Counted from the first letter of the stretch, positions 1,684 to 37,733 are shown. The stretch: DNA of 64,000 nucleotides from Minisyncoccota bacterium (GCA_040904025.1 JBBDUG010000033.1:365-64364), one strand, 5' to 3'. The notes: generated by a model from the letters alone, not told the origin. Numbers and translations: made by a program.

Positions 1684-2838
1684 ATGGATGACTACACGAT
1701 CGATATGGTGCTCTTAGCACTATCGTTAGCTGGTTACTCAATAGCCGTGGGGGGAATCCTATGGCTACTAGCTCAAAACAAGGTCTTTTTCGGATTTGTC
1801 CGAGAAAAACAAGCCATCAACATCATGCGGTTTGACGGATATAGTCGGACTATAATGGCGGCCGATAACCTGATGCTTCGACAAGAAGCAGAGGATAAAG
1901 GCTATCTTCCCAAAGAGTTATTAGAAGATGCGTGGGAGAAGTTGGAGGAAGAAAAAGGGAAGCTGGAGGAAAAGGAAACCTTTTCCTTTAACAATCCCCT
2001 TCCCCACGATATCGTCTTGGTCAAACCCCAAGAAGGGAGGCGTAGGAGTCTTTATCTCATTGGACTATGGCCTATTCATCAGGCCCATCGGTACAACCTA
2101 ATTGAAACCAAATACAAGCAGCAAGGTGGTGATAGCCTTTCAAGCGTCGTAGAGGAAACACAGACCGTCCAATACGACCACGTACCTTTAAATGAGATGG
2201 TACGGGTCTGCATCGTCGCCGATGTAGAGCTGCCAAGTGGAATTCCTGTTACAGCACACTTCTCTGTAACCTTGCGACTTCTCAACACCTATACCCCCAT
2301 CTTCGACATCAAAGATTCGGAGTGGTTGGGCACAGTGTTCGACCAATTAGGTCCGGTCTTAAGAGGGTTCCTAGGTCATTGCAAGTACGAAGAACTCGCA
2401 ACAGGAAAAACCCAGAATGAAGTCATCATGAAGTTCCTCAGAGGAAAAAAAGTAGTACCTCCAGGAGCAACGGAACTCCTTGCCCCGAAGCAAGATAATC
2501 TATCATACTGGGCCAACCAGTATCGCGTCGGTATCCTTCGAGTCGATCTCCAAACAGTTGATCCGTCAGGGGGGATCAAAGAGGAGATGCGAGAAGCAAC
2601 CACGATCGCCTACCGCATGGAGCAAGAAGGAAAAGCGGAGGCAAGTAAGATCCGACAAGTCGGAGATGCGCACGCACATGCACGAGATGTTGAATATGAA
2701 GCCATCCTCAAGAGAGGTAAAGGGGCGGGACTACATATCCGACGCTCAGAAGCAATTGAAAAAACGAACGCATCTACCCTTGTACTCGGAGACGAAAACG
2801 GTAGCAGAACAGCCATTCCAATCGGAGGGGATAAATAA
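1684..2838 (+). CDS. SPFH / band-7 (stomatin/flotillin/HflKC-like) membrane protein
   Basis: N-terminal TM helix. SPFH-like core (YRVGILRVDLQTVDP), then an Ala/Glu-rich helical region ending in ASTLVLGD. The start at 1684 is preferred over 1654 because of the GGAGG Shine-Dalgarno. Confidence 0.55.
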   Translation: MDDYTIDMVLLALSLAGYSIAVGGILWLLAQNKVFFGFVREKQAINIMRFDGYSRTIMAADNLMLRQEAEDKGYLPKELLEDAWEKLEEEKGKLEEKETFSFNNPLPHDIVLVKPQEGRRRSLYLIGLWPIHQAHRYNLIETKYKQQGGDSLSSVVEETQTVQYDHVPLNEMVRVCIVADVELPSGIPVTAHFSVTLRLLNTYTPIFDIKDSEWLGTVFDQLGPVLRGFLGHCKYEELATGKTQNEVIMKFLRGKKVVPPGATELLAPKQDNLSYWANQYRVGILRVDLQTVDPSGGIKEEMREATTIAYRMEQEGKAEASKIRQVGDAHAHARDVEYEAILKRGKGAGLHIRRSEAIEKTNASTLVLGDENGSRTAIPIGGDK

Positions 2839-3734
2839 TGAAAGAATTTGGATTAGTTCTACTCGCAATCTTTGCAATCTGGGGGCTGTTTGCAACGTGG
2901 AGAAAGTTATACCCACAAAGCCTCAATCGCGTGACGAATGTGAGTAGCCCAGCAACCTGGATTACTCTAGGAATTGGTGGCATCACAGCAGTCATCATGA
3001 TCCTAAACCTGACACCCTTTCAACAGGCGAAGGCAACGGATCAAATGATGTTCACCGGAATCATCATTCTCGCAATCTGCGGAGGATTCCTCGCAACGAA
3101 TAACCACCGTGGTTTTCAGGCAGCGGGGAAAGCAATGAAAGCACTGACGGCCTTTGCGTTCGCGGTGCTCCTCATCGTTACCGTATACGAGACGTGGTGG
3201 CAAGATCCCACCGACGCCTCGATGGACGCAGCGTTTCAGGGTGAAATTGCTGCTGTATCGAGTGAAGCGGAGGCTCAATCTCTCTACGAGAAAGTACTCT
3301 GCAACTCGGACTACAACGACAAGGTGTTAGCGGCATGGATGGACCACGCTCCCCTTGATGTAGCCTATCGCCAGAACCTCCGTGCTCGCGCGCTGGAGAT
3401 GAGGGCAAAAGAATGCCCGTCCGAAGACCGAGTCCAGAGAGTGCGAGTCAATCCGACCTACAACCCCTTTGAGAAAGGGCGGGGTGTACCCCACTTGTGG
3501 GCAACACAAGATACCGTGAAGCACGCATGGTTGATCGGAGAAACTCGTCTCGGCGCAAGCGAGAAGAACAAGGAGTTGATTCAGATCAGCCATTGCGGTG
3601 ATCCGAACAATTTCACCTCGCTCGGGGAATTCATCGAAGAGCGAAAAAAGAAGGACACGGTAACGTGCGCAGTACCTTACTTCTCAGTATATTCTTCCAC
3701 CGGTGACAGCTTGCTGTTTATCGCGGAAGACTGA
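2838..3734 (+). CDS. Polytopic membrane protein (3-4 N-terminal TM helices plus a soluble C-terminal domain) translationally coupled to the SPFH gene. Possibly an NfeD-like partner.
   Basis: TAATG stop/start overlap with the upstream gene. Hydrophobic N-terminal segments. No recognisable catalytic motif. Confidence 0.45.
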   Translation: MKEFGLVLLAIFAIWGLFATWRKLYPQSLNRVTNVSSPATWITLGIGGITAVIMILNLTPFQQAKATDQMMFTGIIILAICGGFLATNNHRGFQAAGKAMKALTAFAFAVLLIVTVYETWWQDPTDASMDAAFQGEIAAVSSEAEAQSLYEKVLCNSDYNDKVLAAWMDHAPLDVAYRQNLRARALEMRAKECPSEDRVQRVRVNPTYNPFEKGRGVPHLWATQDTVKHAWLIGETRLGASEKNKELIQISHCGDPNNFTSLGEFIEERKKKDTVTCAVPYFSVYSSTGDSLLFIAED

Positions 3735-3741
3735 GCAAAAA

Positions 3742-3785
3742 GGCCAGAGAGACTCAGTCGAGTCACTCTGGCCTTCTTTATTTAC
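3742..3785. terminator. Bidirectional intrinsic terminator between convergent genes
   Basis: A 13-14 bp stem (ggccagagagactc / gagtcactctggcc) with one mismatch, flanked by an A-run upstream and a T-rich tract downstream. Confidence 0.65.
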
Positions 3786-3792
3786 CCAAGAA

Positions 3793-4032
3793 TTAACGGA
3801 GTGTATTCTCGAGGATGCGCACTATAGCCCATGCGCTCACCATGATCACCATACCAACAATCCCCCATGTGATATGCTTCCGTCCTGTCTCTCGTGCTTC
3901 CGAACTTCCACCCTTTACAAGTGTCTTTAACACTCCAAACAGGAACAGTACCACCGCAACCGCAAAGAGAAGCAATATGAGCGGCTGTATGATAACGGTA
4001 AAGAGATTGTCGATGATGCGATCAAGTGACAT
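3793..4032 (-). CDS. Small two-TM hairpin protein, TrbC/VirB2-like (T4SS-pilin-like) module only. Paralog 1 of 5.
   Basis: The 79-aa protein has the pattern hydrophobic helix, short charged loop (GGSSEARETGRK), ITWGIVGMVIMVSAWAIV helix. This module is shared with the four upstream genes. Confidence 0.55.
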   Translation of the reverse strand: MSLDRIIDNLFTVIIQPLILLLFAVAVVLFLFGVLKTLVKGGSSEARETGRKHITWGIVGMVIMVSAWAIVRILENTLR

Positions 4033-4044
4033 TAAGAAGTGCTA

Positions 4045-4554
4045 CTAAGGTCGATATCGACAGAAGTCACCGATGTATCGCACATAATCAGTTGCACATT
4101 CATCGAGACAATCACCACGTCGAGGTCCATCTACGTGTCTGACCTCAGATGCATCAGAACATCGTTCTGTCCCCTCTAGATCTTGCCCGAAGTCACCGAG
4201 TGGTAAATCTACGAGATCTTCAATGTTCCCTTCTGGAGCAGCGCTGTCAAGATTGAAGGTGTTAACCAGAATATTCACAATTCCCCAAACGGAAACCATA
4301 ACGAAGATTCCGATAATACCCCAAATCATTGTCTGCTGTGCTTTCTTTCGCTCTTCCGGCTCTCCTGACTTTAGGATGTAGCGAAGTACCCCCCATAGGA
4401 ATAGAAGTACCGCAGCTGCAATAATGATTGGGACAAGCAAGTTAATGATGTCCTGGATCCAGAAGAAGATACCTTCAATCGTGGGTCCCTGCGCAGATGC
4501 AACAGATGGTGCTGCGAATACTGTAAACGCAAGCGTGTATACTAATTTTTTCAT
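4045..4554 (-). CDS. Secreted pilin-like protein: signal peptide, TrbC/VirB2-like two-TM module, and a C-terminal Cys-rich (4 Cys) acidic tail. Paralog 2.
   Basis: MKKLVYTLAFTVFAAPSVASA signal peptide. Module LFLWGVLRYILKSGEPEERKKAQQTMIWGIIGIFVMVSVWGIVNIL. Confidence 0.6.
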   Translation of the reverse strand: MKKLVYTLAFTVFAAPSVASAQGPTIEGIFFWIQDIINLLVPIIIAAAVLLFLWGVLRYILKSGEPEERKKAQQTMIWGIIGIFVMVSVWGIVNILVNTFNLDSAAPEGNIEDLVDLPLGDFGQDLEGTERCSDASEVRHVDGPRRGDCLDECATDYVRYIGDFCRYRP

Positions 4555-4671
4555 TGTAAGTAAATAATCAATGTAATTGTTAATGTAAGATAAGCCTATA
4601 GCATGGGCCGATCAATACTTTACATGATAAAAAAATAGTGGCTACTGAGCAAGGGTACGTGTGGATAAGCT

Positions 4672-5097
4672 CTAATCACATTCGTCTCCAAAGATGTCAC
4701 TTCCCACACCACAATCAATTGCACGGTCTCGAAAATTATCATCAGGTCTTGTCTCAAGTACATTGTCCCGAAGACCATCAGGCGTAGCTCCGAAGAATGT
4801 ATTAGAGAGAAGATTAACTATCCCCCATAAAGATACCATTACAAAAATCGACATAATACCCCAGATCATGAACTTCTTTCCCTCTTCACGTTTCTCGGGA
4901 TTGTTCTGATTTATGAATATAAAATTAAATACTCCCCAGAGGAAGAAGAGGATAGCCAATGCAAAGATGAGAGGAACGGCAAGTTCTATAAGATCAAATA
5001 CGATAAAGACAAGATCGGTTAAATTACACGGAGGTGTAGAACACTCTGCGGCGTGAGCAATATTGGGAAAAATAAGATTGGTTATAAAATCTATCAT
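4672..5097 (-). CDS. Pilin-like protein with the TrbC/VirB2-like two-TM module and Cys-containing N- and C-terminal extensions. Paralog 3.
   Basis: Module LFFLWGVFNFIFINQNNPEKREEGKKFMIWGIMSIFVMVSLWGIVNLL. ATGA overlap with the upstream gene. Confidence 0.6.
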   Translation of the reverse strand: MIDFITNLIFPNIAHAAECSTPPCNLTDLVFIVFDLIELAVPLIFALAILFFLWGVFNFIFINQNNPEKREEGKKFMIWGIMSIFVMVSLWGIVNLLSNTFFGATPDGLRDNVLETRPDDNFRDRAIDCGVGSDIFGDECD

Positions 5098-5774
5098 TGT
5101 CCTAAGTCAGTTATGGTTCCAACAATAACTTTTGCAAGAATATCCGCCCCAATTATCACTGCGGCTCCGATCAATGTCCACATCAATGTCTTCTTTGCCT
5201 TTGAAATCTTCTCTGGATTACCCTGTGCCACTAGGAAGAGGAAGCCGGAATAGATGATAAATATAATAATTATTGGAATGGCAATTTGAACTATTCTGTC
5301 CAATAAAGCCTCCAGGAATTTAGGTATGGTACTTATACTACCAAGTGGGTTTGTGAGTCTCCCCACAATATGTGCGGGTTCATCAGGATCAACAACTATA
5401 GGCTCAGTGTATTCCGCACTCCTTTCAGTGATCCCGTCTGCATTAATTGAAGTCACCGTTAGCGTTACAAGGTATTCTCCTTCTTCTGGAAACCTATATG
5501 TGACTCGTTCTCCTGTGTCTGTATCAGTCCCATTAATACCTGGACCGGTAAAAGTCCACGTCCATCCATTAATTTCTTCTCCACCATCTGGATCTTCAGA
5601 TGCTTCTCCGGTAAATGAAATATTTAATCCATCCTGACTAACAATGCCAATCTTTGCGACAGGATCTGCAGCAAACACAAATGAAAGGCCCGCGAACAAA
5701 ACAAAAATCCCAACAACAAAGGCTGTGGTAAGTTTAGCTACTATTCTATTATCCAAGTATTGTCCAAAAACCAT
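5094..5774 (-). CDS. Surface protein: N-terminal anchor or signal peptide, one PKD domain, and a C-terminal TrbC/VirB2-like two-TM module. Paralog 4.
   Basis: PKD hallmarks WTWTF, GEYLVTLTVT. C-terminal module IPIIIIFIIYSGFLFLVAQGNPEKISKAKKTLMWTLIGAAVII. Confidence 0.6.
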   Translation of the reverse strand: MVFGQYLDNRIVAKLTTAFVVGIFVLFAGLSFVFAADPVAKIGIVSQDGLNISFTGEASEDPDGGEEINGWTWTFTGPGINGTDTDTGERVTYRFPEEGEYLVTLTVTSINADGITERSAEYTEPIVVDPDEPAHIVGRLTNPLGSISTIPKFLEALLDRIVQIAIPIIIIFIIYSGFLFLVAQGNPEKISKAKKTLMWTLIGAAVIIGADILAKVIVGTITDLGQ

Positions 5775-6750
5775 TTTCTGTATCTAGAAGCGATGCTGTT
5801 ATCGTATTCACGATCAACCACGCCAACGCTATTATTATAAGCCCTATTGCCGTTTTCTTAAAAATATTGTGAGCTGTGGATATCTTTTGTGGACTCCCAC
5901 CGGAAGACATATAGAGCCATCCCGCGTAGGCAAACATAACAGTCGCTACTACCGCTGCGGTATAGAATATCCATTCAATAACACGATTTAAGAGCTCTAT
6001 AAAGCTATTAAAGTCACAATCGATCCCGTTGCAAGGTACAAGTCCACCCTTTCCGTAATCAGTATTTACATCATATTTCGGTGTATCGATATCTGTCACA
6101 CCAGCCCCACTGGAGTCAGTACTTTTTGATCCAACAACAATTGTTTTTGTTGTCTCTGCTGCTCTATCGTCTTCCAAACTTGTAACTAAGAGCTTCACCC
6201 CATACTCACCTGGATTCGAAAAAGCATGTTGTTCACTGCGTCCAGATCCATATTGTACAGACCCTTCTGTGTCGAACTGCCACTGGAATCTGAAGTCACT
6301 TGTATCACCAAAATACGAGATATCCTCTTCAAAGGATATAACTTCTCCGGCTTGAGGATTCTCGGGGTCGAAAGTAAAGTCAACATTCAATGCCTGCTGG
6401 ACCTTAATAGCTTGCGTTATGCTATGGGTCTCCCCTTCACTATCAAGAACAATGAGGGTAACAGGATGATTTCCCGGAGAAGAGAATGTGTAGGGAAAAA
6501 TGGAGTACTCTTCATCCCGCCCACCCCACGTATTGTCTTTATCTCCATCGACATACCATGTCCATGCCTCTGGTGATGTTCCTGGATCATATGAAGAAGT
6601 GGAGATGAATTGAACCTCCTCCCCCACTTCTGCAGAAGGAGGGTCTGCATAGAAGTTGGCCTGTGGAGCTGCATATGCAACCATCGCACTTACCCCCACT
6701 AAAGACAAGAGGAGTGAAAGAGACCAAAATGCTGTATATACGTTTTTCAT
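5749..6750 (-). CDS. Surface protein: signal peptide, two PKD domains, a CxxxxC linker, and a C-terminal TrbC/VirB2-like two-TM module. Paralog 5.
   Basis: Signal peptide MKNVYTAFWSLSLLLSLVGVSAMVAYA. PKD motifs WTWYVDGD, FRFQWQFD, GEYGVKLLVT. C-terminal module ...SGGSPQKISTAHNIFKKTAIGLIIIALAWLIVN. Confidence 0.6.
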   Translation of the reverse strand: MKNVYTAFWSLSLLLSLVGVSAMVAYAAPQANFYADPPSAEVGEEVQFISTSSYDPGTSPEAWTWYVDGDKDNTWGGRDEEYSIFPYTFSSPGNHPVTLIVLDSEGETHSITQAIKVQQALNVDFTFDPENPQAGEVISFEEDISYFGDTSDFRFQWQFDTEGSVQYGSGRSEQHAFSNPGEYGVKLLVTSLEDDRAAETTKTIVVGSKSTDSSGAGVTDIDTPKYDVNTDYGKGGLVPCNGIDCDFNSFIELLNRVIEWIFYTAAVVATVMFAYAGWLYMSSGGSPQKISTAHNIFKKTAIGLIIIALAWLIVNTITASLLDTENGFWTILG

Positions 6751-6752
6751 AC

Positions 6753-8027
6753 CTACAAATTATTATGCGCCTTCTCAATTGCATCCGACCCGCGCAACCT
6801 TCCGGATGTCACATCATCAACCAATGTCTCGAATACATCATAACTACGATACAGATTAACATCCGGCCAGCTCACAGATCTCACCGCTGCTCGATAGAAG
6901 AGGTTCATATACGCATCAGACGGCTCGCTCTGCAATAGATCTCGCCGTGCCGGTGGTAGGAGCTGTATAGAGGATATACTCTCCGCAAAAGCCCTGTTTG
7001 AGAGCAATATAGCCCCTCGAACCGCTTCGGATAGCTGCGAAGACCTCTCCAGCACAGCAATTCCCAACACATGTGCATATGTTCTTGGAACTTCATCACG
7101 TATCTGCGGTACTGAAGTGACATCAAAATTTAAATTCGGATTTCGAGAACGAATACGTCTGATCTCAGAGGCAAACCCGATATAAAGTCCAAGATTATTT
7201 GTTGCAAAGATAGATTGAGCTTCAGGAAGCGCAGAGTTCCATGTATACGTTGGAGTATCAGGGTCAGCAAATTCGGTATAGAAACGTACCACTGAGAGCA
7301 CAATGGATGCATTGCGTGAATTTTTTGGTGCTAATACTGATTCAACTCCATTTCCACTCCACTGTGCAATTGGGTTCCCTGACTGCAACAGAAGAAGTGA
7401 AAAGATATCTGCTGCATTGGCAATATTGGAGAATGTACCTAATGCGATAGCGGCACGCTCGATAGATGTCCCATTACGCACTCCCACCTCATCTACAAAA
7501 TCAGGAATATCACCCCAATATGCTGGTGGTGTTGCAATACCTGCGCCAGAAAGCAATGTTCTGTTCCAGTACATCACGAGAGGATCTACAGAGATAGGAA
7601 GAGCATATATTCCATTTGGTGCAGCAAATACTTCTCCTGCCTCTACAAATGAATCGCGAAAATTCCGTAGTGGAAAGCTTTCATATGGAATCGGAAGTAG
7701 ATCTCCTCGAACTCGCAGAAGTGTTGTCTCTGGATACAAAAGAAGATCGGGAGCACCACCATATGCAAGTGCCTCTACTAATATCTCCTCAAGTCTCTCG
7801 GATGAGATCTGTTGATATTGAAACTCAAACGGAGCCTCACTCTCTACAATCAAGGGCTCTACCGCATCTTCAAAATCTTCTCTTTCCATCTCCCCCCACA
7901 CTGAGAGTTGAGTCGATGGAAGTGCTTCACTACGTTTCTGAAGCGCAAATACAATAACAGCAAGGAGTGCAACAACGAGGAGTATGCCGATAACTACATA
8001 TTGAAATATACTTGTTTGTTCGTCCAT
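6753..8027 (-). CDS. Membrane-anchored extracellular solute-binding protein (SBP family 1 / MalE-like fold) with no adjacent ABC permease or ATPase.
   Basis: N-terminal TM helix. SBP_bac_1-like motifs LSVWGEME, GGAPDLLLY, YALPISVDPLVMYWNRTLL. Only a 2-nt gap to the downstream PKD/pilin-like gene. Confidence 0.5.
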   Translation of the reverse strand: MDEQTSIFQYVVIGILLVVALLAVIVFALQKRSEALPSTQLSVWGEMEREDFEDAVEPLIVESEAPFEFQYQQISSERLEEILVEALAYGGAPDLLLYPETTLLRVRGDLLPIPYESFPLRNFRDSFVEAGEVFAAPNGIYALPISVDPLVMYWNRTLLSGAGIATPPAYWGDIPDFVDEVGVRNGTSIERAAIALGTFSNIANAADIFSLLLLQSGNPIAQWSGNGVESVLAPKNSRNASIVLSVVRFYTEFADPDTPTYTWNSALPEAQSIFATNNLGLYIGFASEIRRIRSRNPNLNFDVTSVPQIRDEVPRTYAHVLGIAVLERSSQLSEAVRGAILLSNRAFAESISSIQLLPPARRDLLQSEPSDAYMNLFYRAAVRSVSWPDVNLYRSYDVFETLVDDVTSGRLRGSDAIEKAHNNL

Positions 8028-8036
8028 ATATCAGTA

Positions 8037-8570
8037 TTATCTCTTTTTTCTTGCAATAAAGCCATAATGGTGATCACGGGCGGGAATCTCCTCCCCTATC
8101 TCAAATCCAGCTGATTCAAGTAGCTTCCGAGCATCACCAACAGATATCACATGACCGGGTTGCGGACCTAGCCCCCCAAAAGAATCACTCCAATCTATAA
8201 ATAACATTCGTCCACCCAGCTTGAGAATCCGGGATACTTCAGAAAGAGCCGTTTCTTTATCCTCAACCTGGAAAAGGGTGTTTGAAAGAATGACGGCATT
8301 CATCGAATTGCTTTTCAGAGTACTCCCCTCCTTTGCCTCAAGATCTCCCCACACCACTTCCACATTGTCATACCCGCGTCGCATCGCTTCCTTCTTCAGA
8401 CGCTCCACTAGCTGTTTTTGTATATCGACTGCATATACTTTTCCTCCCGCCCCCACCGCTTCTGCGGCAGCAAGAGTATAATGTCCTGAACCTGCTCCAA
8501 GATCAGCGACAAGATAGCCCGGTTCAAGCTTGAGATGCGTAATATTTCCCTGCGGATTACTGAATGCCAT
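8037..8570 (-). CDS. Class I SAM-dependent methyltransferase
   Basis: LVADLGAGSGHYTLAAA matches the GxGxG SAM-binding motif I, with a typical post-I acidic residue and motif II. Confidence 0.7.
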   Translation of the reverse strand: MAFSNPQGNITHLKLEPGYLVADLGAGSGHYTLAAAEAVGAGGKVYAVDIQKQLVERLKKEAMRRGYDNVEVVWGDLEAKEGSTLKSNSMNAVILSNTLFQVEDKETALSEVSRILKLGGRMLFIDWSDSFGGLGPQPGHVISVGDARKLLESAGFEIGEEIPARDHHYGFIARKKR

Positions 8571-8605: not shown

Positions 8606-11083
8606 TCACAGACAAGCAAGAGATGCTACCTTATCGCTACTACGTAATTTCATAATGCGCACTCCCTGTGTTGCACGTCCAAGAGACGGAATCTCTTCAA
8701 CATCAATACGTATCACCTGACTTTTCTGTGACATTGCGACCATCTCCGCCTCTTCTCCTGAGAGTATCCGTGCAGATACCAGTTCCCCGGTTTTCTTCGT
8801 CACATTTGCGGTTTTTAGTCCGGATCCACCACGATTCTGTGATTTATATTCAGTGAGTTTTGTCTTCTTTCCATATCCGTTCTCACTAAGCACAAAGAGT
8901 GTTCCTTTATCATCCTCGGAATGCACCACATCACCCGATATCACCGCATCACCCTTTCCGAGTTTAATACCCCGTACACCCTGTGCGGTACGTCCCATAG
9001 CCCGAACATCTTCTTCAGAGAATCGGATTGACTTCCCTTTTCGTGTCACGAGTACAACATCCTCTCCCGGATCGGCAAAGTTTGCTGCAACCAAATTATC
9101 ATCATCTTTGAGTGTAATGGCGATAATTCCACCACGGCGCACGTCATGGAATGATGACGCCTCTACTTTCTTCACCGTTCCACTTTCTGTCACAAGTACA
9201 ATATCCAATTCACCGCCATCTTTCTTCACATTCTTTGGCATCGGCAGGATAGTTGTTACTTTTTCATCATCCTCAAGAGAAAGGAAATTCATAATTGACT
9301 TTCCTTTCGTCGCACGACGTCCTTCAGGGAGTTCGTACATCTTTATCTGATACACCTTTCCTTTGTCGGTAAAGAAGAGGAGATCACTGTGTGTAGAGCA
9401 TTGAATAAGATGAGTTACCACATCCTCTTCTTTAGTATTTAGATCAACAACCCCAACACCTCCTCGCTTCTGCCTCTTGTACGAAGATGGATCTGTTCTC
9501 TTCACATATCCACCTGCGGTATAGACGAGCACACTTTCAACCTCAGGAATCATATCTTCCATGGAGATGTTACGTACTCCATGCTCAACAACGGTGGTTC
9601 GACGTGCGTCACCATACTTATCCTTCATATCTTCAAGTTCCTCTTTCACCTGTGCAAGTATGTTCTTTTCACTGGAGAGAAGTTCTTCGAGTTCTTTGAT
9701 GAACTTCTGAATCTCTTTGAGTTCGTCTTCTATCTTCTGCCTCTCGAGTCCAGCCAATCGTTGTAGCTGCATAGCGAGAATGGCATCAGTTTGATCTGAG
9801 GAGAACTTAAACTTCTTCATCAGATTCTCCTTTGCAGCATCGCGATCTTTTGATTCCCTGATGATTTTGATGACCTCATCAATGTGATCAAGTGCTTTCT
9901 TGAGTCCGAGAAGTATATGTTCTCGCGCCTGTGCCTTTTTGAGTTCATATTCAGCGCGACGACGCACAACATTTTGTCGATGCTTCACAAACTCTTGCAA
10001 GACTGCTTTCAGAGAGAGCATTTGTGGGACTCCATCAACAAGTGCCACGAGGTTCATATGGAATTTCTCCTCTAATTGAGTGTATTTATACAATTTATTC
10101 AACGTCTTCTGTGGGTGTGAACCTGTCTTGAGGTCAATGGCAATACGGATGTCTCTTGTGGATTCATCGCGAATATCTCGGATACCCTCCAACTTCTTAT
10201 CCTTCACAAGATCCGCAATCTTCATGACAAGATTCTCTTTATTTACCCGATATGGAATAGAACGGATAATAATCTGAAATGATCCGGCTTTGGGTTCAAC
10301 TATCTCCGCTTCGCCGCGAACCACCATGCCACCGCGCCCTGTGGAGTATGCATGAAGAATATCCTCACGATCGAAGACAACAGCCCCTGTTGGAAAATCG
10401 GGCGCCTTTATATACTCCATGAGATCTTCTGTGGTCGCATCAGGATTATCAATGAGGTGTGTAGTGGCATCGATACATTCTCCCAAGTTATGTGGAGGAA
10501 TATTTGTCGCCATTCCAACGGCAATACCGAGTGTACCGTTCAAAAGTAGTCCGGGCACTGCAGCCGGTAGCACCTCCGGCTCATCGTGTGTCCCGTCATA
10601 GTTAGAGACCATATCAACAGTTTCTTTGTTAATATCTGCAAGAAGCTCTTCAGATATCTTTGTCATCTTCGCTTCGGTATATCGATATGCAGCAGCGGAA
10701 TCACCATCAATGGATCCAAAGTTTCCCTGTCCACTAATCAGTGGGTAGCGGTGATTAAAATCCTGTGCCATTTTCACCATCGTGTCATATACCGCAGCAT
10801 CACCGTGCGGGTGATATTTTGCGATAACATCTCCAACCACAGCAGCTGACTTTTTGAACTTCGCTCCAGAGGTCAACCCCATCTTATTCATTGCAAACAA
10901 AATACGGCGATGGACTGGTTTCAATCCATCACGTACATCAGGGAGAGCACGAGCGGTAATAACTGACATTGCATAGTCGATGTATGCCTCTTTCATTTCG
11001 TCAGTAATAGAGCGAGACACTATTTTGTCAGCCACTACTTTTTCCTCCTCTTTATTGTTGTCGTCCTTTTTCTTACGAGCCAT
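8606..11083 (-). CDS. gyrA: DNA gyrase subunit A
   Basis: An 825-aa protein. N-terminal AAVYDTM(V) region, active-site Tyr context (AAAYRYTEA), and C-terminal beta-pinwheel repeats. Confidence 0.92.
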
Positions 11084-13223: not shown

Positions 13224-14486
13224 CTATGTTGGAAGATCAGAAGGTGGTTCACCTTTCTTGGCATCAAGGCGCTTGAATGTCGGTGTCTGCGCCACACCTC
13301 CGGGAAAGTGATATATGGTCGCCAACTCTTCTGTGGTGAGAATAAAGGGAGAAGCTTCGTAGTATCGATACGGAGGATAGAAGAAAGAGCGTAGACGGTA
13401 TGCTTCAAAAAACTCCCGTTTCATCTTATCTTTTCGTCTCTCAACATATTTCTCCATTCCAAAAATGGAGTCTACATTCTTCTCAAACTCGCTGACATCC
13501 GTCCAATAGCCCAACTTAAATCCATTAGCGTCATGATAATTATACTGCCGGAGGCTTCCAATTAATCCCACAATACTCACCCCTTCAAAAACATCTTTCT
13601 CAGCAATATATAGTCCACGTATTGCAACTTCAAATGGAATCTTTGCCTGTTGTCGACGCAGTGATTTTATATAGTCATCCTTTCCTGGCTCCAGATATGG
13701 CAACAAGAGTTCTTTCCCCTCCTCTGTCTTCTTTGCCTCTTTAACAACACTATCTATCTCTTTATCCACCTTATCCTTCCACTCTGTTTTCTTTAAGAGT
13801 GTATTTCCTGTCTTCCAATCCCACGCCTTGTGGCCACGAATCAAGATTTGTATCCACACCTGTTCTCCCCTATTGAGATTCCCAAGATACTCCAACATGG
13901 AGGTGATGGGGTTTGTCTGCTCCTCTGGCTTAACCCCCGGCTTGTCTAGGTTGTAGTCAACATACGTCTTTATCGGCTTCACATCCTCGTCTGTCTGTTG
14001 GAAATATGTCCCCCACATGTCAATGTCAGCTGAATCCACATCGACAAAGTTGGTGTAGTCGGGGACTTCATATATCTCAGCTTCAGGATACTGCGCATAT
14101 ATCTGTGCTTTCACAATCCGTGTATGTTTTGAATCGGTACGGATAAAGAAATGTATCTTTCCACCAATAGAAACAAGTTCAAGTGAAAACCACGGTATCA
14201 CTTCACCGTTCACGAATACTTTGTATAACGTGGGGGTACTCTTTAAATACAATGCAGTGTAGATAAGCTCCATTGCCTCAGGAGTCTTGCGAATATCCTC
14301 TGGTAGCTTAATCTCCAAGAGATCAAATTCTCTCTCTTGTAGATATTTTAGGCGTATATACCGCATGTAGAGTGTAGCGGCTACCCATATGAGCAGAATG
14401 GGAAGCCAGATAGGGGCGAGGGTTAGGAGAATATCCAGCCCCATCAACACATATCGCCATCCTTCGAGATTAAAGAAATTTTGCAT
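13224..14486 (-). CDS. Hypothetical membrane protein (two N-terminal TM helices plus a large soluble domain) co-operonic with mltG.
   Basis: A 420-aa ORF with no recognised motif. Only a 2-nt gap to mltG. Confidence 0.4.
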   Translation of the reverse strand: MQNFFNLEGWRYVLMGLDILLTLAPIWLPILLIWVAATLYMRYIRLKYLQEREFDLLEIKLPEDIRKTPEAMELIYTALYLKSTPTLYKVFVNGEVIPWFSLELVSIGGKIHFFIRTDSKHTRIVKAQIYAQYPEAEIYEVPDYTNFVDVDSADIDMWGTYFQQTDEDVKPIKTYVDYNLDKPGVKPEEQTNPITSMLEYLGNLNRGEQVWIQILIRGHKAWDWKTGNTLLKKTEWKDKVDKEIDSVVKEAKKTEEGKELLLPYLEPGKDDYIKSLRRQQAKIPFEVAIRGLYIAEKDVFEGVSIVGLIGSLRQYNYHDANGFKLGYWTDVSEFEKNVDSIFGMEKYVERRKDKMKREFFEAYRLRSFFYPPYRYYEASPFILTTEELATIYHFPGGVAQTPTFKRLDAKKGEPPSDLPT

Positions 14487-19480: not shown

Positions 19481-22342
19481 TTACTTTGTTACAAAGTTCA
19501 CAAGACGATCAGGAACAACGATCACTTTTTCAACTTCTCTCCCCTCTAGACGCTGCTGAACTTCCTCTTCGGTGTGTGCTTTTTCTTTTAATTCATCCCT
19601 TGTGAGTCCAGAAGAAATAGAGAAGGAATGTCGAACCTTACCGTCTATTTGAACAACTATTGTAACTTCCTTTTCTTCTAAAAGATGTTGGTCATATTCT
19701 GGCCATGCTTCAAGATGAATTGATCCGTCTCCATCATATGTATGCCACAGCTCTTCTGTGAGATGAGAAGCGAAGGGTGCCAATACACGCAAGAAGGTTT
19801 TTATCTGATCTCTACCTATTTTCTTTTCTTCTTCCACAGCCTTCACAAAGATCATCATTTGAGACACAGCGGTATTAAACTTGAAGGCGATAATATCATT
19901 CCCAACTTTCTTTATCGTTGTGTGTAATTCGATATCAAGAGCTTGATTATCTTCATCCTGAATATAATCAGATAGACCCCAAACCCGCTCAAGGAAACGT
20001 CGCGCCCCCACCATATTATCTGTACTCCAGGCGATAGTGTTTTCAAATGGTCCCATAAACATCTCATATACACGAAGAGTGTCAGCGCCCACTTGTTCCA
20101 CAATATCGTCTGGATTAACAACGTTGCCAAAACGCTTACTCATTTTTCGTCCATCTGCTGCCTGTATCAACCCCACTGAATGAAGTTCTGTAAATGGCTC
20201 GTTTGTACTCACAACACCAATGTCGTACAAAAACTTGTGCCAAAATCGTGCATAGATCAAGTGACGCGTAGCGTGCTCTGCTCCACCGACATATACATCC
20301 ACAGGAGACCAATACTGCTCTTTTGAGGGATCGACAAACTCTGATTCATTACGCGGATCCATATATCGCAGATAATACCAACACGATCCTGCCCACTGAG
20401 GCATAGTATTTGTCTCTCGCTTCCCTTCTCCTCCACATTCCGGACACGTTGTATTCACCCACTCTTTTATATCTGCAAGTGGTGATTCTCCGGTACCTGT
20501 CGGTTCGTACGCTTCTACCTCGGGTAAGGTGACAGGAAGTTCATTCTCCGGTACTGGAACGACCCCACACTCTTCACAATGTATGAGAGGAATAGGTTCT
20601 CCCCAGTATCGCTGCCGAGAAAAAACCCAATCCTGAAGACGATAATTTACATTCTTCTTTCCATATTTTTCTGTAATCTTTTCTGCCGCTTCATCACTTT
20701 TAAGATTAGAGAAGTCCTCAGAGTCTACAAGTCTCCCCTTTTCGGTAACGATCTCCTTACCTAGATACATCCTTAGAATATGCTGCTCATCGATAAATTC
20801 ATCGTCTTCTGCGGTAAGTCTTAAAGCATCCTCAGGAGAATGCCATTCGTATTCAAAGGAAACTTCGTATTCTTCCGGGCTGGGCTCACATTCTTCACAA
20901 TCCTCAAACCACAATTCAAATGCCTTTTTATGTCGTATAAAATCATCCCGAGATGAGTCTTTTGGATTCAATGAACCACTGTGATATGAATATGTATTAG
21001 CTACTTCCGCACCAGCAGAAGCAAATCTATATCCCACCTCTTCTTCTATTTCTCGAATCAGTCCTTCTTCCCATGTCTCACCCTCATCAAGAGTACCTCC
21101 GGGAAGCCGATAGGTCGATGTCCTACTTAAATGTGCAATCTGTAGAAGAATCTTGTTATCTTTCTTTCTGCGAATAATACCATATGAACCACGTACAGGA
21201 ATCAGATCATCTTTATTTCCCGAAAACCACGGCATTTCATATTCCTTAGCAATAACCTGACGTATAGGAAGATTAAATTTCTGCGCAAATTCATGGTCGC
21301 GCTCATCATGAGCAGGTACTGCCATAATTGCACCCGTACCATATCCCCCCAACACATAATCAGCGACCCACACAGGGATCTCTTCGCCCGTAGCGGGATG
21401 AATTGCTTTGATACCAGTATCTACCCCAGTTTTCTCTTTTTCTTCGTTTGCGCGCTCTATTTCACTCTTTGAGAGAGATTTATCAACATACTCCTCTATA
21501 GCAGAATCAGCCTTCCACCCTTTATCAATCCATTCCCGTGCTTTTTCAGGAGAGACAACAAGAAAAGTTACGCCGAAGAATGTATCAGGTCGGGTGGTAA
21601 ATACCTCCACGTTATGCTGGCCATCGATCCCCTTGAGTTCAAATACAAAAGAGGTTCCCTCTTTCTTCCCTATCCAATTCCGTTGCATTTCCTTTATATT
21701 ATCCGGCCATTTAGGAAGCTCTTTCAGGTCCTCAAGAAGTCTGTCCGCATAGTCAGTGATACGCAACATCCACTGACGTATAGGGCGTTTTTCGATCTCG
21801 CTTCCACATCTCTCACACACACCCCCTTCAAGATCCTCATTAGCGAGCCCTGTCCTACAGGAGGGACACCAATTAATCGGTGCATGAGATTCATATGCAA
21901 GCCCTTTTTTAAATAACTGAAGAAAAATCCACTGCGTCCATTTATAATATTCGGGGTCTGTTGTATTAATTTCTCGGTCCCAATCATAATCAAATCCAAT
22001 GTTCTCAAGCTGTTCTTTGTATCGTGCAATATTTTTTTCTACCGCCTTTCGCGGATGAACTTGATTTTTAATAGCATAATTTTCTGCCGGCAAGCCAAAT
22101 GCATCCCACCCCATAGGGTGAAGCACCTGGTGTCCTTTCATACGCATGTGACGCGAATACACATCAGTCGCTATGTACCCTTTCGGATGTCCGACATGAA
22201 GCCCCTTTCCAGATGGATATGGAAACATATCGAGAATATAACTTTTGGGTTTATCTGAATCTTCTTCTGATTTATAGATATCTTCTTTTGCCCAAAATTC
22301 TCGCCACTTCTTCTCTATTTTTTTGTGATCATACTCTGCCAT
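19481..22342 (-). CDS. leuS: Leucyl-tRNA synthetase with a Nudix-hydrolase domain of about 140 aa inserted between the AHDERD/VIA segment and the KVNYRLQDW segment
   Basis: HIGH (HVGHPKGY), AHDERD, KMSKR. The insertion at about aa 375-535 contains a canonical Nudix box GTLDEGETWEEGLIREIEEEVGY (Gx5Ex7REUxEExGU). Confidence 0.9.
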   Translation of the reverse strand: MAEYDHKKIEKKWREFWAKEDIYKSEEDSDKPKSYILDMFPYPSGKGLHVGHPKGYIATDVYSRHMRMKGHQVLHPMGWDAFGLPAENYAIKNQVHPRKAVEKNIARYKEQLENIGFDYDWDREINTTDPEYYKWTQWIFLQLFKKGLAYESHAPINWCPSCRTGLANEDLEGGVCERCGSEIEKRPIRQWMLRITDYADRLLEDLKELPKWPDNIKEMQRNWIGKKEGTSFVFELKGIDGQHNVEVFTTRPDTFFGVTFLVVSPEKAREWIDKGWKADSAIEEYVDKSLSKSEIERANEEKEKTGVDTGIKAIHPATGEEIPVWVADYVLGGYGTGAIMAVPAHDERDHEFAQKFNLPIRQVIAKEYEMPWFSGNKDDLIPVRGSYGIIRRKKDNKILLQIAHLSRTSTYRLPGGTLDEGETWEEGLIREIEEEVGYRFASAGAEVANTYSYHSGSLNPKDSSRDDFIRHKKAFELWFEDCEECEPSPEEYEVSFEYEWHSPEDALRLTAEDDEFIDEQHILRMYLGKEIVTEKGRLVDSEDFSNLKSDEAAEKITEKYGKKNVNYRLQDWVFSRQRYWGEPIPLIHCEECGVVPVPENELPVTLPEVEAYEPTGTGESPLADIKEWVNTTCPECGGEGKRETNTMPQWAGSCWYYLRYMDPRNESEFVDPSKEQYWSPVDVYVGGAEHATRHLIYARFWHKFLYDIGVVSTNEPFTELHSVGLIQAADGRKMSKRFGNVVNPDDIVEQVGADTLRVYEMFMGPFENTIAWSTDNMVGARRFLERVWGLSDYIQDEDNQALDIELHTTIKKVGNDIIAFKFNTAVSQMMIFVKAVEEEKKIGRDQIKTFLRVLAPFASHLTEELWHTYDGDGSIHLEAWPEYDQHLLEEKEVTIVVQIDGKVRHSFSISSGLTRDELKEKAHTEEEVQQRLEGREVEKVIVVPDRLVNFVTK

Positions 22343-34930: not shown

Positions 34931-36238
34931 ATGAAATACGTTCTTTTCTTTACAGTAACGCTGATGCTCATCGGCGTATCTACTTCACACGCACAGTTTA
35001 TGCCCGCTCAATATGTGGACACGAATCCACCGGAAGTTCGCGGACTCAACCCGTATATAGACAATTTTGTCTGTTCGATCGTTACTCCGGAATTCGAACT
35101 TCCCGACAATGCGGAAGATGATGGGTTCATGTTAACACCGAGCCACATGCGTGAGCTACGCACACTCTGCGCTGAGGAAATTGACCAAAAGGTACACCCA
35201 AGCGTCGGGCATGAGATCCATGTATTTGGGAACGATGACGAGACCCGTTTCGTAACGGTAGGAAATCTCTCGGATCTTCCTAAGTACTCACGCCAGGCAA
35301 ATCACGACTATGAATATGCGGCACAGCCCCGTGCAGTCGTGGTCGCCAGCGCTCTCGTAGATGCATTGGGATATAATCCCCTTAATGTGAAGGTGGTAGG
35401 ATTGCCGGGAGACTTCTTTTGTCGACCGAGTATGTCCGAATCCGAATGCGAGAAGGAGAAACGCGGTGTATACATATACACTCTTCCTTCAACCGTCTCC
35501 AACCGACGTCTAATCGACGATCTTTCAGTAACCCTGGAAAATCACGATGAGCGCATTTCGAATCTCGAGGACGCTCCTCGAGAGCGAGATCGTTCCGACG
35601 AAATAATTGATGTCGTCAGAGCGGAAGGGGATCGGACACGGGAGACCGTTACCGCGGAACATGAAGAGACCAGACGAGCGCTGAACCAGGGCGGTTTCTA
35701 TGCCTTGGGGGAATATCTAACCTTCCCCAAGAACATGGGTAATCATTTTGGCTCCGGAATCGGGTATTCATGGGAAGGCTTCAGTATTGACGCTCGCTAT
35801 CACAAGGCGTCAGACAGCCACACCGAAATGGTCTACCCTCATGTGGGGGACAACGTCCCCGTCCTCTACGAAGGTATCTGGCACGGCGCAATGGGATCAC
35901 TTAATCTCCACCCCCTTTCGATCAGACCACCAGACAGCTGGGGGGCAGGTTGGAGAAGGAATCTAAAGTTCATGCCCTATGTCTCTATTACCGGCGGTAT
36001 CATGGCTCGCTACATGAGCCCTAAAGAAACTCTCCCGGGCTCATGGGACTTCCGCCAAGAATTCCCCATTGTGGGATGGGAGCTGGGTGTAAACCTTCGG
36101 TTTTTGGACCACGTGGAGGGATACATTGGAGGGGGAATAAAGACCTTTTGGCCACCGAAGTTAGATCGCTCGACAGAATACAATGAGCGAGTAGACGATG
36201 GTGGTTCGCTACGCATCGGCGTGCGACTCATTCACTAG
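34931..36238 (+). CDS. Secreted hypothetical protein (signal peptide; C-terminal half rich in amphipathic beta-strand-like segments)
   Basis: MKYVLFFTVTLMLIGVSTSHA signal peptide. C-terminal alternating hydrophobic patterns (GIGYSWEGFSIDARY, WELGVNLRFLD, SLRIGVRLIH). Confidence 0.45.
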   Translation: MKYVLFFTVTLMLIGVSTSHAQFMPAQYVDTNPPEVRGLNPYIDNFVCSIVTPEFELPDNAEDDGFMLTPSHMRELRTLCAEEIDQKVHPSVGHEIHVFGNDDETRFVTVGNLSDLPKYSRQANHDYEYAAQPRAVVVASALVDALGYNPLNVKVVGLPGDFFCRPSMSESECEKEKRGVYIYTLPSTVSNRRLIDDLSVTLENHDERISNLEDAPRERDRSDEIIDVVRAEGDRTRETVTAEHEETRRALNQGGFYALGEYLTFPKNMGNHFGSGIGYSWEGFSIDARYHKASDSHTEMVYPHVGDNVPVLYEGIWHGAMGSLNLHPLSIRPPDSWGAGWRRNLKFMPYVSITGGIMARYMSPKETLPGSWDFRQEFPIVGWELGVNLRFLDHVEGYIGGGIKTFWPPKLDRSTEYNERVDDGGSLRIGVRLIH

Positions 36239-36318: not shown

Positions 36319-37662
36319 TTAGAGATCCTCCAACGGATCAATCATAGTGCGCTGGATATTCTCAGCCTGAGAGAGTACGGAGTCAGCATATCCGAGTCCA
36401 TTTGTCTGCCATCCTCCACCGGCAAAGTATCGCGCCGCAGCCTCACGCTCCGCGCTCCATCCACCATACACTGCACCAAGATCTTGAAGGAAAAGTGCTG
36501 TGGCCATAAAGGCATGGCGTGGTTCCCACGGATTTGCAATGGAAACTCCAAGGGTACTTGCAACACGATCCTTGTACATCATCCATGTAGACGGGATAAA
36601 CTGAGAGGGTCCCATCGCACCACCATATCCAATCCACTGTGGACATGAGACCACTTGGCCATATGGATCAAATCCAAGTTCATCCGCAATTTTAAGAAAT
36701 GGTTCCACATCACGTCCGGGCTTCATAACATTATCAAAATGACGTCCTGTATTCTTTCCGACACCAGCTCCGGTTGCGGGATCGGTCAGATAACATTGTC
36801 CGACATTTGCACCTAAATCAGATTCTTGTTTGAGAATGCCGAGAATAAAGGCAGTACGAACTCCAGTTTTTTGTGATGCAGCACGTGCATACCGAAGCGC
36901 ATCCTCAAACTTGATCGGTCCGGCATCACGAAGTTGGAAAAGTGCATTTCTAATTTCATTCGCCTCACGCTGCTTCTGGGAAATCACTTGTTCATATGTT
37001 TGCTCTTCACTTTTGCTCGCGAACAGCAATACCTGCTTCTCATCTTCCTTTGCTTCAACTTCTTGTTTTTCTTGCTCTATCGCATATCGTGCATCGGCCT
37101 CAGCACGACGACGTGCCTCCAGTGTTGTCGTCTCATTTCTAAGAACTGCTTGTATATCACGAATATTAGAGAGCGAGCTGTGAATTGCCGTCTTTACCGA
37201 CGCCACATTATCCAAATCCTGGAAGAAGGTAGAAAGACTTTCACTCCCCAAAATTATCTCAGCAAGAGAAAAAGAGTCTATTTCATTTCTTCGACGAACC
37301 AGTTGTGCGAGTGACTCTTTCTCTCGTACAATCTTCTCAGAAAGAGATTCGATCGTTTGCTCTTTCTCTTGCATTTCTGTTGTGATATTGCCAATTGCAA
37401 GATTCTTTGCGCGAATAGAAAGTTGCGCCTCTCGTATCTCAGCATTTAAAATAGCAATATCTCTCTCTATAGATTGAGTTTCCTGCCTTTTTACATGTAA
37501 AATCTTTCGTTGTTCAAAAATTTCATTTTCAACTTCAGCAAGCTCATCTTCAAGACGCTCCCGCCTCTCCTCCTCTGTCTCTGCAGAAATAGAGAGGGGT
37601 ATAAGAACTCCTAAAAGAACGATGGTGAGTATACATGCGGTAACACGTTTCATACGCCTCAT
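36319..37662 (-). CDS. Secreted coiled-coil protein with a C-terminal lytic transglycosylase (SLT/MltB-like) domain
   Basis: Signal or TM segment. A coiled coil of about 250 aa. ILKQESDLG (catalytic Glu-Ser) and YGGAMGPSQFIPSTW are typical of SLT_2. Start chosen at the internal Met MRRMKRV. Confidence 0.6.
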   Translation of the reverse strand: MRRMKRVTACILTIVLLGVLIPLSISAETEEERRERLEDELAEVENEIFEQRKILHVKRQETQSIERDIAILNAEIREAQLSIRAKNLAIGNITTEMQEKEQTIESLSEKIVREKESLAQLVRRRNEIDSFSLAEIILGSESLSTFFQDLDNVASVKTAIHSSLSNIRDIQAVLRNETTTLEARRRAEADARYAIEQEKQEVEAKEDEKQVLLFASKSEEQTYEQVISQKQREANEIRNALFQLRDAGPIKFEDALRYARAASQKTGVRTAFILGILKQESDLGANVGQCYLTDPATGAGVGKNTGRHFDNVMKPGRDVEPFLKIADELGFDPYGQVVSCPQWIGYGGAMGPSQFIPSTWMMYKDRVASTLGVSIANPWEPRHAFMATALFLQDLGAVYGGWSAEREAAARYFAGGGWQTNGLGYADSVLSQAENIQRTMIDPLEDL

Positions 37663-37733
37663 TATACAGAAAACTTGAGTTTGAAAGAAATGTCTTTGCA
37701 TTGTAAAGAGAAGACGGTTAATTCCTAACCCCC

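Follow-up and report, generated by a model that had tools for sequence, protein, structure and literature searches.

The 64,000-nucleotide (nt) window analyzed here (Minisyncoccota bacterium, GCA_040904025.1, JBBDUG010000033.1:365-64364) contains on its minus strand a tandem array of five genes for pilin-like proteins, led by a gene for a membrane-anchored, MalE-like solute-binding protein (SBP); the organism is an ultrasmall, probably host-dependent bacterium of the class Paceibacteria. SBP (6753–8027, 424 amino acids (aa)) is the first gene of the SBP-pilin unit, and the array genes are named in their order of transcription: P5 (5749–6750, 333 aa), P4 (5094–5774, 226 aa), P3 (4672–5097, 141 aa), P2 (4045–4554, 169 aa), and P1 (3793–4032, 79 aa), the last gene of the array. 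SBP and P5 are separated by 2 nt, P5 and P4 overlap by 26 nt, P4 and P3 overlap by 4 nt, and P2 and P1 are separated by 12 nt; between P3 and P2 lies a 117-nt spacer (4555–4671, minus strand) with a putative internal promoter for P2 and P1. An intrinsic terminator recognized by folding and sequence (3737–3773, minus strand) closes the operon. Upstream of SBP are a gene for a class I S-adenosylmethionine (SAM)-dependent methyltransferase (8037–8570, minus strand, 177 aa; Methyltransf_31, E = 6e-20) and, 35 nt before it on the same strand, gyrA (8606–11083, 825 aa; DNA_topoisoIV and DNA_gyraseA_C in the precomputed Pfam annotation), which is context and not a functional part. The minus-strand gene series from gyrA through P1 (3793–11083) is uninterrupted, and gyrA is possibly part of the same transcript as the array. 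A preliminary description made from the sequence had located the methyltransferase gene, SBP, and the five array genes at 3793–8570, with overlaps of 4–26 nt or very short gaps between the array genes apart from the 117-nt spacer, and had placed the methyltransferase gene directly downstream of gyrA; all of this was borne out.

Each of the five array proteins scored above the gathering score (26.6 bits) of the Pfam family PF18895 (T4SS_pilin): P1 gave 39.0 bits (E = 8.4e-10), P2 50.8 bits (E = 1.8e-13, the best), P3 40.5 bits (E = 2.9e-10), P4 39.8 bits (E = 4.8e-10), and P5 44.3 bits (E = 2e-11). The gathering score of the TrbC family PF04956 (27.9 bits) was not passed; P4 reached 22.2 bits (E = 1.6e-4), P2 16.8 bits, and orthologs from four related loci (L046, L062, L070, and L161) 19.6–22.3 bits. 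These sub-threshold matches in P4, P2, and independent orthologs (E = 1e-4 to 1e-3) coincide with the residues matched by PF18895, and a further sub-threshold match (E = 4e-9) was obtained with the NCBIfam 'pilin-like conjugal transfer protein' of a Mycoplasma integrative and conjugative element (ICE). The preliminary description had assigned a module shared by the five proteins to the TrbC/VirB2-like pilin type. This assignment stands through PF18895, with PF04956 remaining below threshold in every case, and membership in the pilin family is established at the level of sequence.

Alignment of the five modules revealed a unit of about 80 residues in which a loop with the motif G(N/S/E)PE..K separates two hydrophobic helices. 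An AlphaFold2 (AF2) model of P2 consists of a signal-peptide helix, a hairpin formed by helices at residues 26–61 and 66–103 (predicted local distance difference test (pLDDT) 82–87), and a disordered tail, and the two-helix topology with a short charged loop that had been proposed is confirmed by both the alignment and the modeled hairpin. The PF18895 match covers aa 252–317 in P5, within a conserved block at aa 235–333 (nt 5752–6048); the module lies at aa 149–217 in P4 (nt 5124–5330), aa 37–97 in P3 (nt 4807–4989), and aa 29–96 in P2 (nt 4267–4470). Signal peptides are present in P5 (aa 1–27), P2 (aa 1–22), and P4, and P1 is a minimal module without a signal peptide. A fold search was too non-specific to settle pilin membership, and a sequence-profile search of the PDB with the module returned only unspecific transmembrane hairpins (cytochrome oxidase subunit 2, rhodopsin) and no pilin. 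The PF18895-type module belongs to a very large family, with 63,276 representatives of 50%-identity clusters, many of which carry unrelated N-terminal domains such as CHAP or SLT. Among the best matches to the module profile in the protein database, many polypeptides (up to 1,775 aa) contain 2–16 modules; either these are genuine fusions of several hairpins, or gene calling has merged neighboring genes, as could happen under an alternative genetic code.

The PKD domains that had been described N-terminal to the module in the two largest paralogs were recovered by Pfam. P5 matched PKD_4 with 60.3 bits (E = 1.9e-16, in two stretches) and PKD with 48.9 bits over approximately aa 27–205 (nt 6136–6672), and is built of a signal peptide, two PKD domains, a Cx4C loop, and the P5-type module; the cysteines of the loop (CNGIDC, residues 240 and 245) directly precede the module. 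P4 contains a single domain at aa 36–114 (nt 5433–5669; PKD_4 40.2 bits, E = 3.5e-10; PKD 27.7 bits). PKD-fused array members were found only in this organism and one relative. Because the first two genes of other arrays encode only 130–150 aa, the PKD domains are lineage-specific insertions between signal peptide and module, and the fusions, although present, are not a general feature of such clusters. The first gene has been enlarged independently elsewhere, by a CHB_HEX_C_1/Fn3_assoc region in L062 and an FN3-like region in L070, and several further first-gene extensions in other lineages have no Pfam match. Some middle genes of other arrays encode two modules in one chain (L006, L015, L023, L053, and L055). 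Cysteine-bearing termini on two other paralogs, also anticipated by the preliminary description, are those of P3, with residues 19 and 24 before the module (leader CSTPPC) and 129 and 140 in the tail, and of P2, with residues 132, 149, 153, and 165 all in the C-terminal tail. The four cysteines of each protein are kept in the syntenic relative L004. VKOR and DsbA/thioredoxin-like genes are present within the window (56823–57317, minus strand) and past its end (L171, 1850–2575), which fits extracytoplasmic disulfide formation and is relevant to the cysteine pairs of P2, P3, and P5.

Comparison of the window with L004 by protein region revealed that the modules and the parts appended to them have diverged to very different extents. 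The modules of P5, P4, P2, and P3 are 93%, 83%, 81%, and 73% identical, respectively, P1 is 85% identical, and GyrA and SBP are 87% and 70% identical; the PKD parts of P5 and P4 are 28% and 33% identical, each with indels. Within the P2 tail, the proximal part is conserved and the distal four-cysteine part (aa 132–169, nt 4048–4161) is variable, at 31% identity. Since synonymous sites are saturated between the two orthologous arrays (proportion of synonymous differences, pS, 0.6–0.8), the ratio of nonsynonymous to synonymous substitution rates (dN/dS) is unusable and only amino-acid identity by region is reported. The rapid divergence of the outer parts is consistent with contact with a variable host surface. 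P5 and SBP are identical to proteins of the MAG GCA_040879565.1, annotated as 'Candidatus Paceibacterota bacterium', and two Logan assemblies also contain this organism. Among three samples with this organism, the 4.8 kb are identical, with no signal of microdiversity.

SBP scored 36.8 bits with SBP_bac_1 (cut-off 26) and was also above threshold for SBP_bac_8; a profile search of the PDB matched 4r9f (E = 3.6e-17). Its AF2 model (pLDDT 89.3, predicted template modeling score (pTM) 0.84) combines an N-terminal transmembrane helix (aa 7–33, nt 7929–8009) with a MalE-type two-lobe body. Foldseek aligned the model with Atu4361 (E = 5e-22) and with a cyclomaltodextrin-binding protein (TM-score 0.73), superpositions ranging from 0.65 to 0.73, and the nearest solved structures are binders of sucrose/maltotriose, cyclomaltodextrin, manno-oligosaccharide, and beta-1,2-gluco-oligosaccharide. 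Phe8, at the cytoplasmic end of the N-terminal anchor, is invariant in 25 members at 35–44% identity, which hints at a specific membrane contact. The SBP family is uniform, with proteins of about 427 aa in at least 1,006 protein-database clusters that are nearly all labeled Parcubacteria or Paceibacterota. No BPD_transp or ABC_tran genes were found in the locus neighborhoods represented by the annotated loci L001 and L004–L007 or among the scanned open reading frames (ORFs) of the window, in agreement with the earlier characterization of SBP as a transmembrane-anchored, MalE-like protein that has no adjacent ABC partner. In one metagenome-assembled genome (MAG) of Tayloriibacteriota (L016, 9998–11680; JBPOID010000005.1), a 560-aa ORF joins SBP in frame to a P5-type module, the junction lacking a signal peptide, so that SBP occupies the position of the PKD domains here. 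This fusion may provide Rosetta-stone-like support for physical coupling of the two proteins, or may reflect an assembly error that removed a stop codon in this single MAG.

The association of SBP with pilin arrays extends far beyond this genome. Three SBP relatives at 36–44% identity all lie in the order GyrA, usually methyltransferase, SBP, and then five to seven PF18895 genes, and their outer flanks differ. A scan of GTDB species representatives by SBP identified at least 590 genomes with a relative, from which 80 loci were kept, and pilin genes in relatives were called with a hidden Markov model built from the modules of the window. In all 76 loci with at least 700 nt after SBP, a same-strand pilin gene follows at a distance of no more than about 560 nt, and in most cases no more than 25 nt, and 59 of the 60 loci with more than 4 kb downstream (drawn from the 80 SBP-selected loci plus L001 and L004–L007) hold four to eight pilin genes. 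The reverse test was performed on JGI metagenome loci selected by P2-type modules alone; among the 32 with enough upstream DNA, 29 have SBP directly upstream. Of the 80 related loci, 71 have gyrA upstream in the same orientation, and 68 have a methyltransferase homolog between gyrA and SBP. The homolog is absent in 12 (one of them uninformative on account of short upstream DNA), and the others keep SBP and six to eight pilins, so the methyltransferase is dispensable. Only generic class I SAM-methyltransferase families were matched by this protein in Pfam, and PADLOC likewise returned only a generic methyltransferase-domain match. The pairing of the cluster with SBP and a methyltransferase, as described earlier, is thus upheld for SBP (more than 100 related loci), and the methyltransferase is a conserved neighbor but not an obligate partner. 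All six relatives that could be cross-checked belong to the class Paceibacteria. SBP together with the array is an operon conserved across Paceibacteria and located away from virB4.

Gene order within the arrays is also conserved. Modules of 58 other complete arrays (59 including that of the window) were compared with the five modules studied here. P5-type modules nearly always come first and P4-type second, followed by one to four middle genes of P3/P2 type, with a P1-type gene last; 47 of the 58 other arrays end in this way. The class consensus sequences of the five types differ. Because positional orthology holds across the 58 further arrays, the paralogs appear to have distinct roles, and the pattern argues for a particular structural role of each pilin type. 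Recent tandem amplification or cassette-style variation of the five genes was also considered and is contradicted by the fixed order of orthologous types across arrays.

The spacer that precedes the penultimate gene is a second conserved property of the arrays. Among the 59 arrays, it has a median length of 105 nt and is at least 80 nt long in 85%, whereas the other junctions have medians of 0–16 nt; the same spacer, with a median of 104 nt, is found in 47 independent metagenome arrays. The 117-nt spacer of the window contains an exact DnaA-box 9-mer, TTATCCACA, at 4660–4668 on the minus strand, followed after 7 nt by a −35-like hexamer, TTGCTC (4647–4652), and after a further 17 nt by a −10-like hexamer, TATCAT (4624–4629). 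The two hexamers were assigned by the analyst from an alignment of spacers across species; they were not listed by a promoter scanner because the −35 hexamer matches at only three of six positions. With up to one mismatch allowed, 32 of 49 spacers contain the 9-mer against an expectation of 2.0, as do 17 of 29 spacers of the metagenome set against 1.1, an enrichment of at least 16-fold in the equivalent spacer of two independent locus sets. The motif is mostly in the coding orientation and 32–39 nt upstream of a TATAAT-like hexamer, and this spacer accounts for 16 of the 35 exact copies found across 1.35 Mb of loci. From these data, we infer two expression units, SBP-P5-P4-P3 and a separately regulated P2-P1 driven by the putative internal promoter, and the 9-mer suggests that the last two pilin genes may be controlled by DnaA or by another regulator that recognizes a site of this kind. 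Transcription of the array would end at the terminator after P1, GGCCAGAG...CTCTGGCC followed by UUUUU, which has a folding energy of −30.2 kcal/mol (z = −6.95 relative to shuffled sequences) and is shared with the convergent gene at 2838–3734. A second motif, an A-rich run, GGTCGTT, and a T-rich run located about 25 nt after the −10-like hexamer, was observed in approximately 22 of the 49 spacers (among them those of L006, L007, L015, L020, L024, L029–L031, L040, L047, L051, L053, L062, L069, L073, L075, and L077) and is absent from the window and L004. It could be an operator, or it could fold in the leader RNA into a small A-U hairpin whose loop is GGTCG.

No VirB4, VirD4, or VirB6 family was found above threshold in about 80 kb, as judged by Pfam scans of the window together with about 5 kb before its start (L001) and 10 kb past its end (L171), with part of the ORFs judged from their first 60 residues. 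The only trace of a type IV secretion system (T4SS) in the window is a T4SS-DNA_transf stretch inside P5, at 12.2 bits (E = 0.078; cut-off 20.1). The Pfam-scanned ORFs are housekeeping genes, among them gyrB, those for leucyl-tRNA synthetase (LeuRS), PheT, alanine racemase, malic enzyme, sigma factors, and a Na+/H+ exchanger, and others; ORFs outside the Pfam scan were called housekeeping from their first 60 residues only. Rfam detected two tRNAs only. A type IV pilus-type pilin of 178 aa with an N_methyl motif is encoded at the window end (63474–63947, minus strand, completed in L171 at 9150–9686), so the organism also has a type IV pilus system, unrelated to the array.

Further observations concern several other genes. 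Two plus-strand genes for membrane proteins with no family match (1654–2838 and 2838–3734) are convergent with the array; their products are only 21–24% identical to those of the same-position genes in the syntenic relative, in which GyrA is 87% identical, and the genes are either very fast-evolving or replaced. L005 has a Band_7 protein at this position. As they are not kept in relatives, the two genes were dropped as candidate parts of the array. The product of a minus-strand gene at 13224–14486 (420 aa, two N-terminal transmembrane helices) is 76% identical in L004 and has no Pfam, NCBIfam, or PDB match beyond a faint precomputed match to DUF8128; it was considered as a hidden T4SS part and dropped, having no family match and being kept in only six related loci. 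In LeuRS (19481–22342, minus strand, 953 aa), residues 386–518 form an inserted NUDIX hydrolase domain, an architecture shared with its counterpart in L005. A secreted 435-aa protein with no family match (34931–36238, plus strand) adjoins an SLT_2 lytic transglycosylase of 460 aa with a coiled-coil N-terminus (36319–37701, minus strand), 28 kb from the array. GyrA of L047 (4496–8137) has 1,213 aa, as compared with about 825 aa elsewhere, possibly owing to an intein or other insertion.

VirB2-like pilin arrays are already known in Patescibacteria as a kind, and the cluster is not peculiar to this genome (PMC12102498, PMC10633639, PMC12857230). In a search of 3,035 Patescibacteria genomes with PF18895 and PF04956, VirB4 was found in 2,417 assemblies and VirB2-like pilins in 1,948 of the VirB4-positive assemblies, next to virB4 in 1,135 (PMC12102498). 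That study counted 441 VirB2 arrays, scored as 'near virB4' (its Fig. S9 legend) and defined as 2–11 PF18895/PF04956 genes in tandem or with one non-pilin gene between them; the five consecutive genes of the window fall within this definition. The T4SS locus of S. epibionticum ML1 (SEML1_0006-0019) contains six such pilins, which are essential (PMC10633639, PMC12857230), and the arrays used for comparison also include the 'Sec secreted array' of N. lyticus TM7x. A pilus is the predicted product of the published arrays, and the single species tested requires them for epibiotic growth. The array described here resembles them in PF18895 membership, in its tandem organization of 2–11 divergent paralogs (about 25% identity), in its occurrence in monoderm, ultrasmall bacteria, and in having no relaxase. 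It differs from them in that theirs lie in or near a virB4 cluster, whereas SBP-led arrays were never within 10 kb of a T4SS ATPase, and in that the present array is led by SBP, has a fixed order of types and a DnaA-box-like spacer, and includes PKD-fused members in this lineage. The open-access literature searched contained no link of SBP to these pilins and no description of a fixed gene order, an internal control site, or PKD-fused members, and PMC12102498 does not mention PKD. An SBP-led, virB4-distant, ordered, and internally regulated configuration, with PKD and cysteine-bearing outer parts in this lineage, looks new.

More distant systems share individual features with the operon. Like TrbC/VirB2/TraA pilins (PF04956), the array proteins have a signal peptide, two hydrophobic helices, a short basic loop, and both termini outside, and their profile similarity is weak but on the same residues, with scores under the family threshold. 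Unlike in those systems, however, the array adjoins neither a virB/trb operon nor a gene for pilin processing or cyclization (TraF or TraX, for instance), five distinct paralogs take the place of one major pilin plus VirB5, and some paralogs are fused to globular domains. The binding protein shares SBP_bac_1/8 membership and the two-lobe fold with MalE/CUT1-type ABC SBPs (Atu4361, the cyclomaltodextrin-binding protein, and CpMnBP1) but differs from them in having no adjacent permease or ATPase genes in the window or the annotated relatives and in being anchored by a transmembrane helix with conserved residues. Its translation is moreover coupled to that of the pilin genes, and one genome has it fused to a pilin module. 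The archaeal Ced/Ted DNA-import pili (for example, the Aeropyrum pernix pilin, PDB 8dfu) are also among the closest known systems. The VirB2 arrays of Bartonella and Anaplasma, which serve antigenic or host-range variation, likewise consist of several tandem VirB2 paralogs, an analogy made in PMC12102498; in contrast to those, the paralogs here are ancient, orthologous across species, and fixed in order, and variation resides in the appended domains and not in interchangeable whole genes.

We propose, with a probability of roughly one half, that the operon encodes an ordered set of pilins for a filament or complex that contacts the host, with P2 and P1 supplying the bulk, P5, P4, and P3 acting as adaptors, and SBP serving as a glycan receptor. 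In this model, all paralogs would span the membrane as helical hairpins in the manner of VirB2/TraA pilins, exposing both termini to the outside and keeping the short basic loop on the inside. P2 and P1, as the separately driven pair, would be the abundant subunits that build the structure, with P5, P4, and P3, co-translated with SBP, as low-copy adaptors; together they would form a surface filament or contact structure. Both pilin termini are on the exterior of the pilus in the structures of the F- and T-pilus, so N- or C-terminal additions are sterically possible. A P5-type subunit may carry or dock a binding head, which in most species would be the separate SBP; in this lineage, P5 and P4 would have gained PKD domains and the tails of P2 and P3 would be disulfide-bonded, all on the outer face. 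Display on the outer face is proposed because the modules are 73–93% identical to those of the relative as compared with 28–33% for the PKD parts and 31% for the P2 cysteine tail, and because the first gene gained other beta-sandwich or glycan-associated domains independently. SBP would then act as an adhesin or sensor that recognizes a host glycan, or would trap host-derived oligosaccharide where contact is made. Assembly would probably be performed by a VirB4/VirB6 machine encoded elsewhere in the genome. The link to a T4SS is drawn because arrays of the same Pfam family sit in the essential T4SS locus of S. epibionticum (PMC10633639, PMC12857230) and because all six relatives checked that have an SBP-led array are VirB4-positive; assembly of the present array by a T4SS is an extrapolation from homology and from the Saccharimonadia data.

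Several observations weigh against this proposal. We know of no Patescibacterium in which a filament of this kind has been observed. No T4SS ATPase was found within 10 kb of the array in 83 SBP-selected and 80 pilin-selected loci, on the basis of clustered Walker A ORFs of at least 450 aa and of precomputed Pfam annotation for L001 and L004–L007; the Walker A ORFs of this size were only IF-2, GyrA, ClpB, UvrA, SMC, ABC-F, or Mfd-like proteins. The absence of VirB4, VirD4, and VirB6 genes near the cluster, reported in the preliminary description, holds for the window and its approximately 15 kb of flanks, where no VirB3 gene was found either, and extends, for T4SS ATPases, to relatives. VirB4 is listed elsewhere in all six related assemblies that carry an SBP-led array (Table S1 of PMC12102498), a result that is not significant given a base rate of about 80%; the accession of the present assembly does not occur in the tables of that survey. 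With VirB4 in those six relatives and in 2,417 of 3,035 Patescibacteria assemblies, the initial suggestion of a free-standing filament rather than a T4SS is not demonstrated. The transmembrane helix of SBP suits a membrane complex better than a pilus tip, and the split into major and minor subunits is drawn solely from promoter position. In addition, lone PF18895 proteins with long N-terminal domains are scattered among housekeeping genes, and the module may also be usable as a plain membrane anchor.

The last point leads to the view that PF18895 is a generic C-terminal two-helix anchor, the five genes encoding independent surface proteins whose clustering reflects inherited synteny beside gyrA. 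The size of the family, the unrelated N-terminal domains of many members, the occurrence of some alone among housekeeping genes, and the broad synteny of the gyrA-to-infB neighborhood in the clade are as this would predict; but P1–P3 and most array genes elsewhere barely exceed the module and leave little to anchor, and even where the flanks change, the arrays keep their 0–16 nt junctions, their fixed order, and the regulatory spacer. That the modules are the most conserved parts (83–93%), near GyrA (87%), is unexpected for a passive anchor, and the fusion of SBP to a module in L016 argues for joint function, so we consider this explanation unlikely. To the same degree, we doubt a T4SS-independent envelope complex in which SBP hands host oligosaccharide to a hetero-oligomeric pore of the five two-helix paralogs, with no ABC transporter. 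Whichever of the two is used for selection, SBP and the array almost always occur together, with neither an ABC permease or ATPase nor a T4SS ATPase nearby; distinct subunits in a fixed order fit a defined hetero-oligomer, the double-module fusions show that neighboring hairpins can be covalently joined, and SBP is itself anchored by a transmembrane helix, whose cytoplasmic end bears an invariant Phe. Such a pore, however, would have no energy source and no known transporter fold, and its module is homologous to pilins and not permeases; the displayed PKD/Fn3-type domains and fast-evolving outer parts suggest adhesion, and a separate promoter for two of the subunits suggests unequal stoichiometry. 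Somewhat less probable again is a new kind of apparatus, maybe independent of VirB4, in which SBP on a scaffold of five pilin types taps host glycans and output is tied to replication through DnaA. The sub-threshold matches to TrbC and the Mycoplasma ICE protein, and the small size and two transmembrane helices of the proteins, could also be taken to indicate the routine conjugative pilin set of an integrated mobile element or a phage holin set. This is effectively refuted: the locus sits among housekeeping genes (gyrA, YceG, IF-2, tRNA synthetases), no relaxase, integrase, coupling protein, or phage gene was seen in the approximately 80 kb around the array, synteny is retained in more than 100 species-level genomes, GC content is even along the region with no deviation of the array from its surroundings, and no holin family was matched among the array proteins in the Pfam scan.

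Paceibacteria are among the most abundant uncultured bacteria of groundwater and sediments. Published reviews have called the role that the T4SS and its pilin arrays play in Patescibacteria 'completely unknown', even though they are essential in the one species tested. The operon offers a handle on this role: its binding protein has a ligand that can be screened for, its five subunit types have predictable roles, its fast-evolving outer domains should track the host, and its defined cis-element may link expression to DnaA. A search for pilin arrays that is centered on virB4 misses what is the main arrangement in Paceibacteria.

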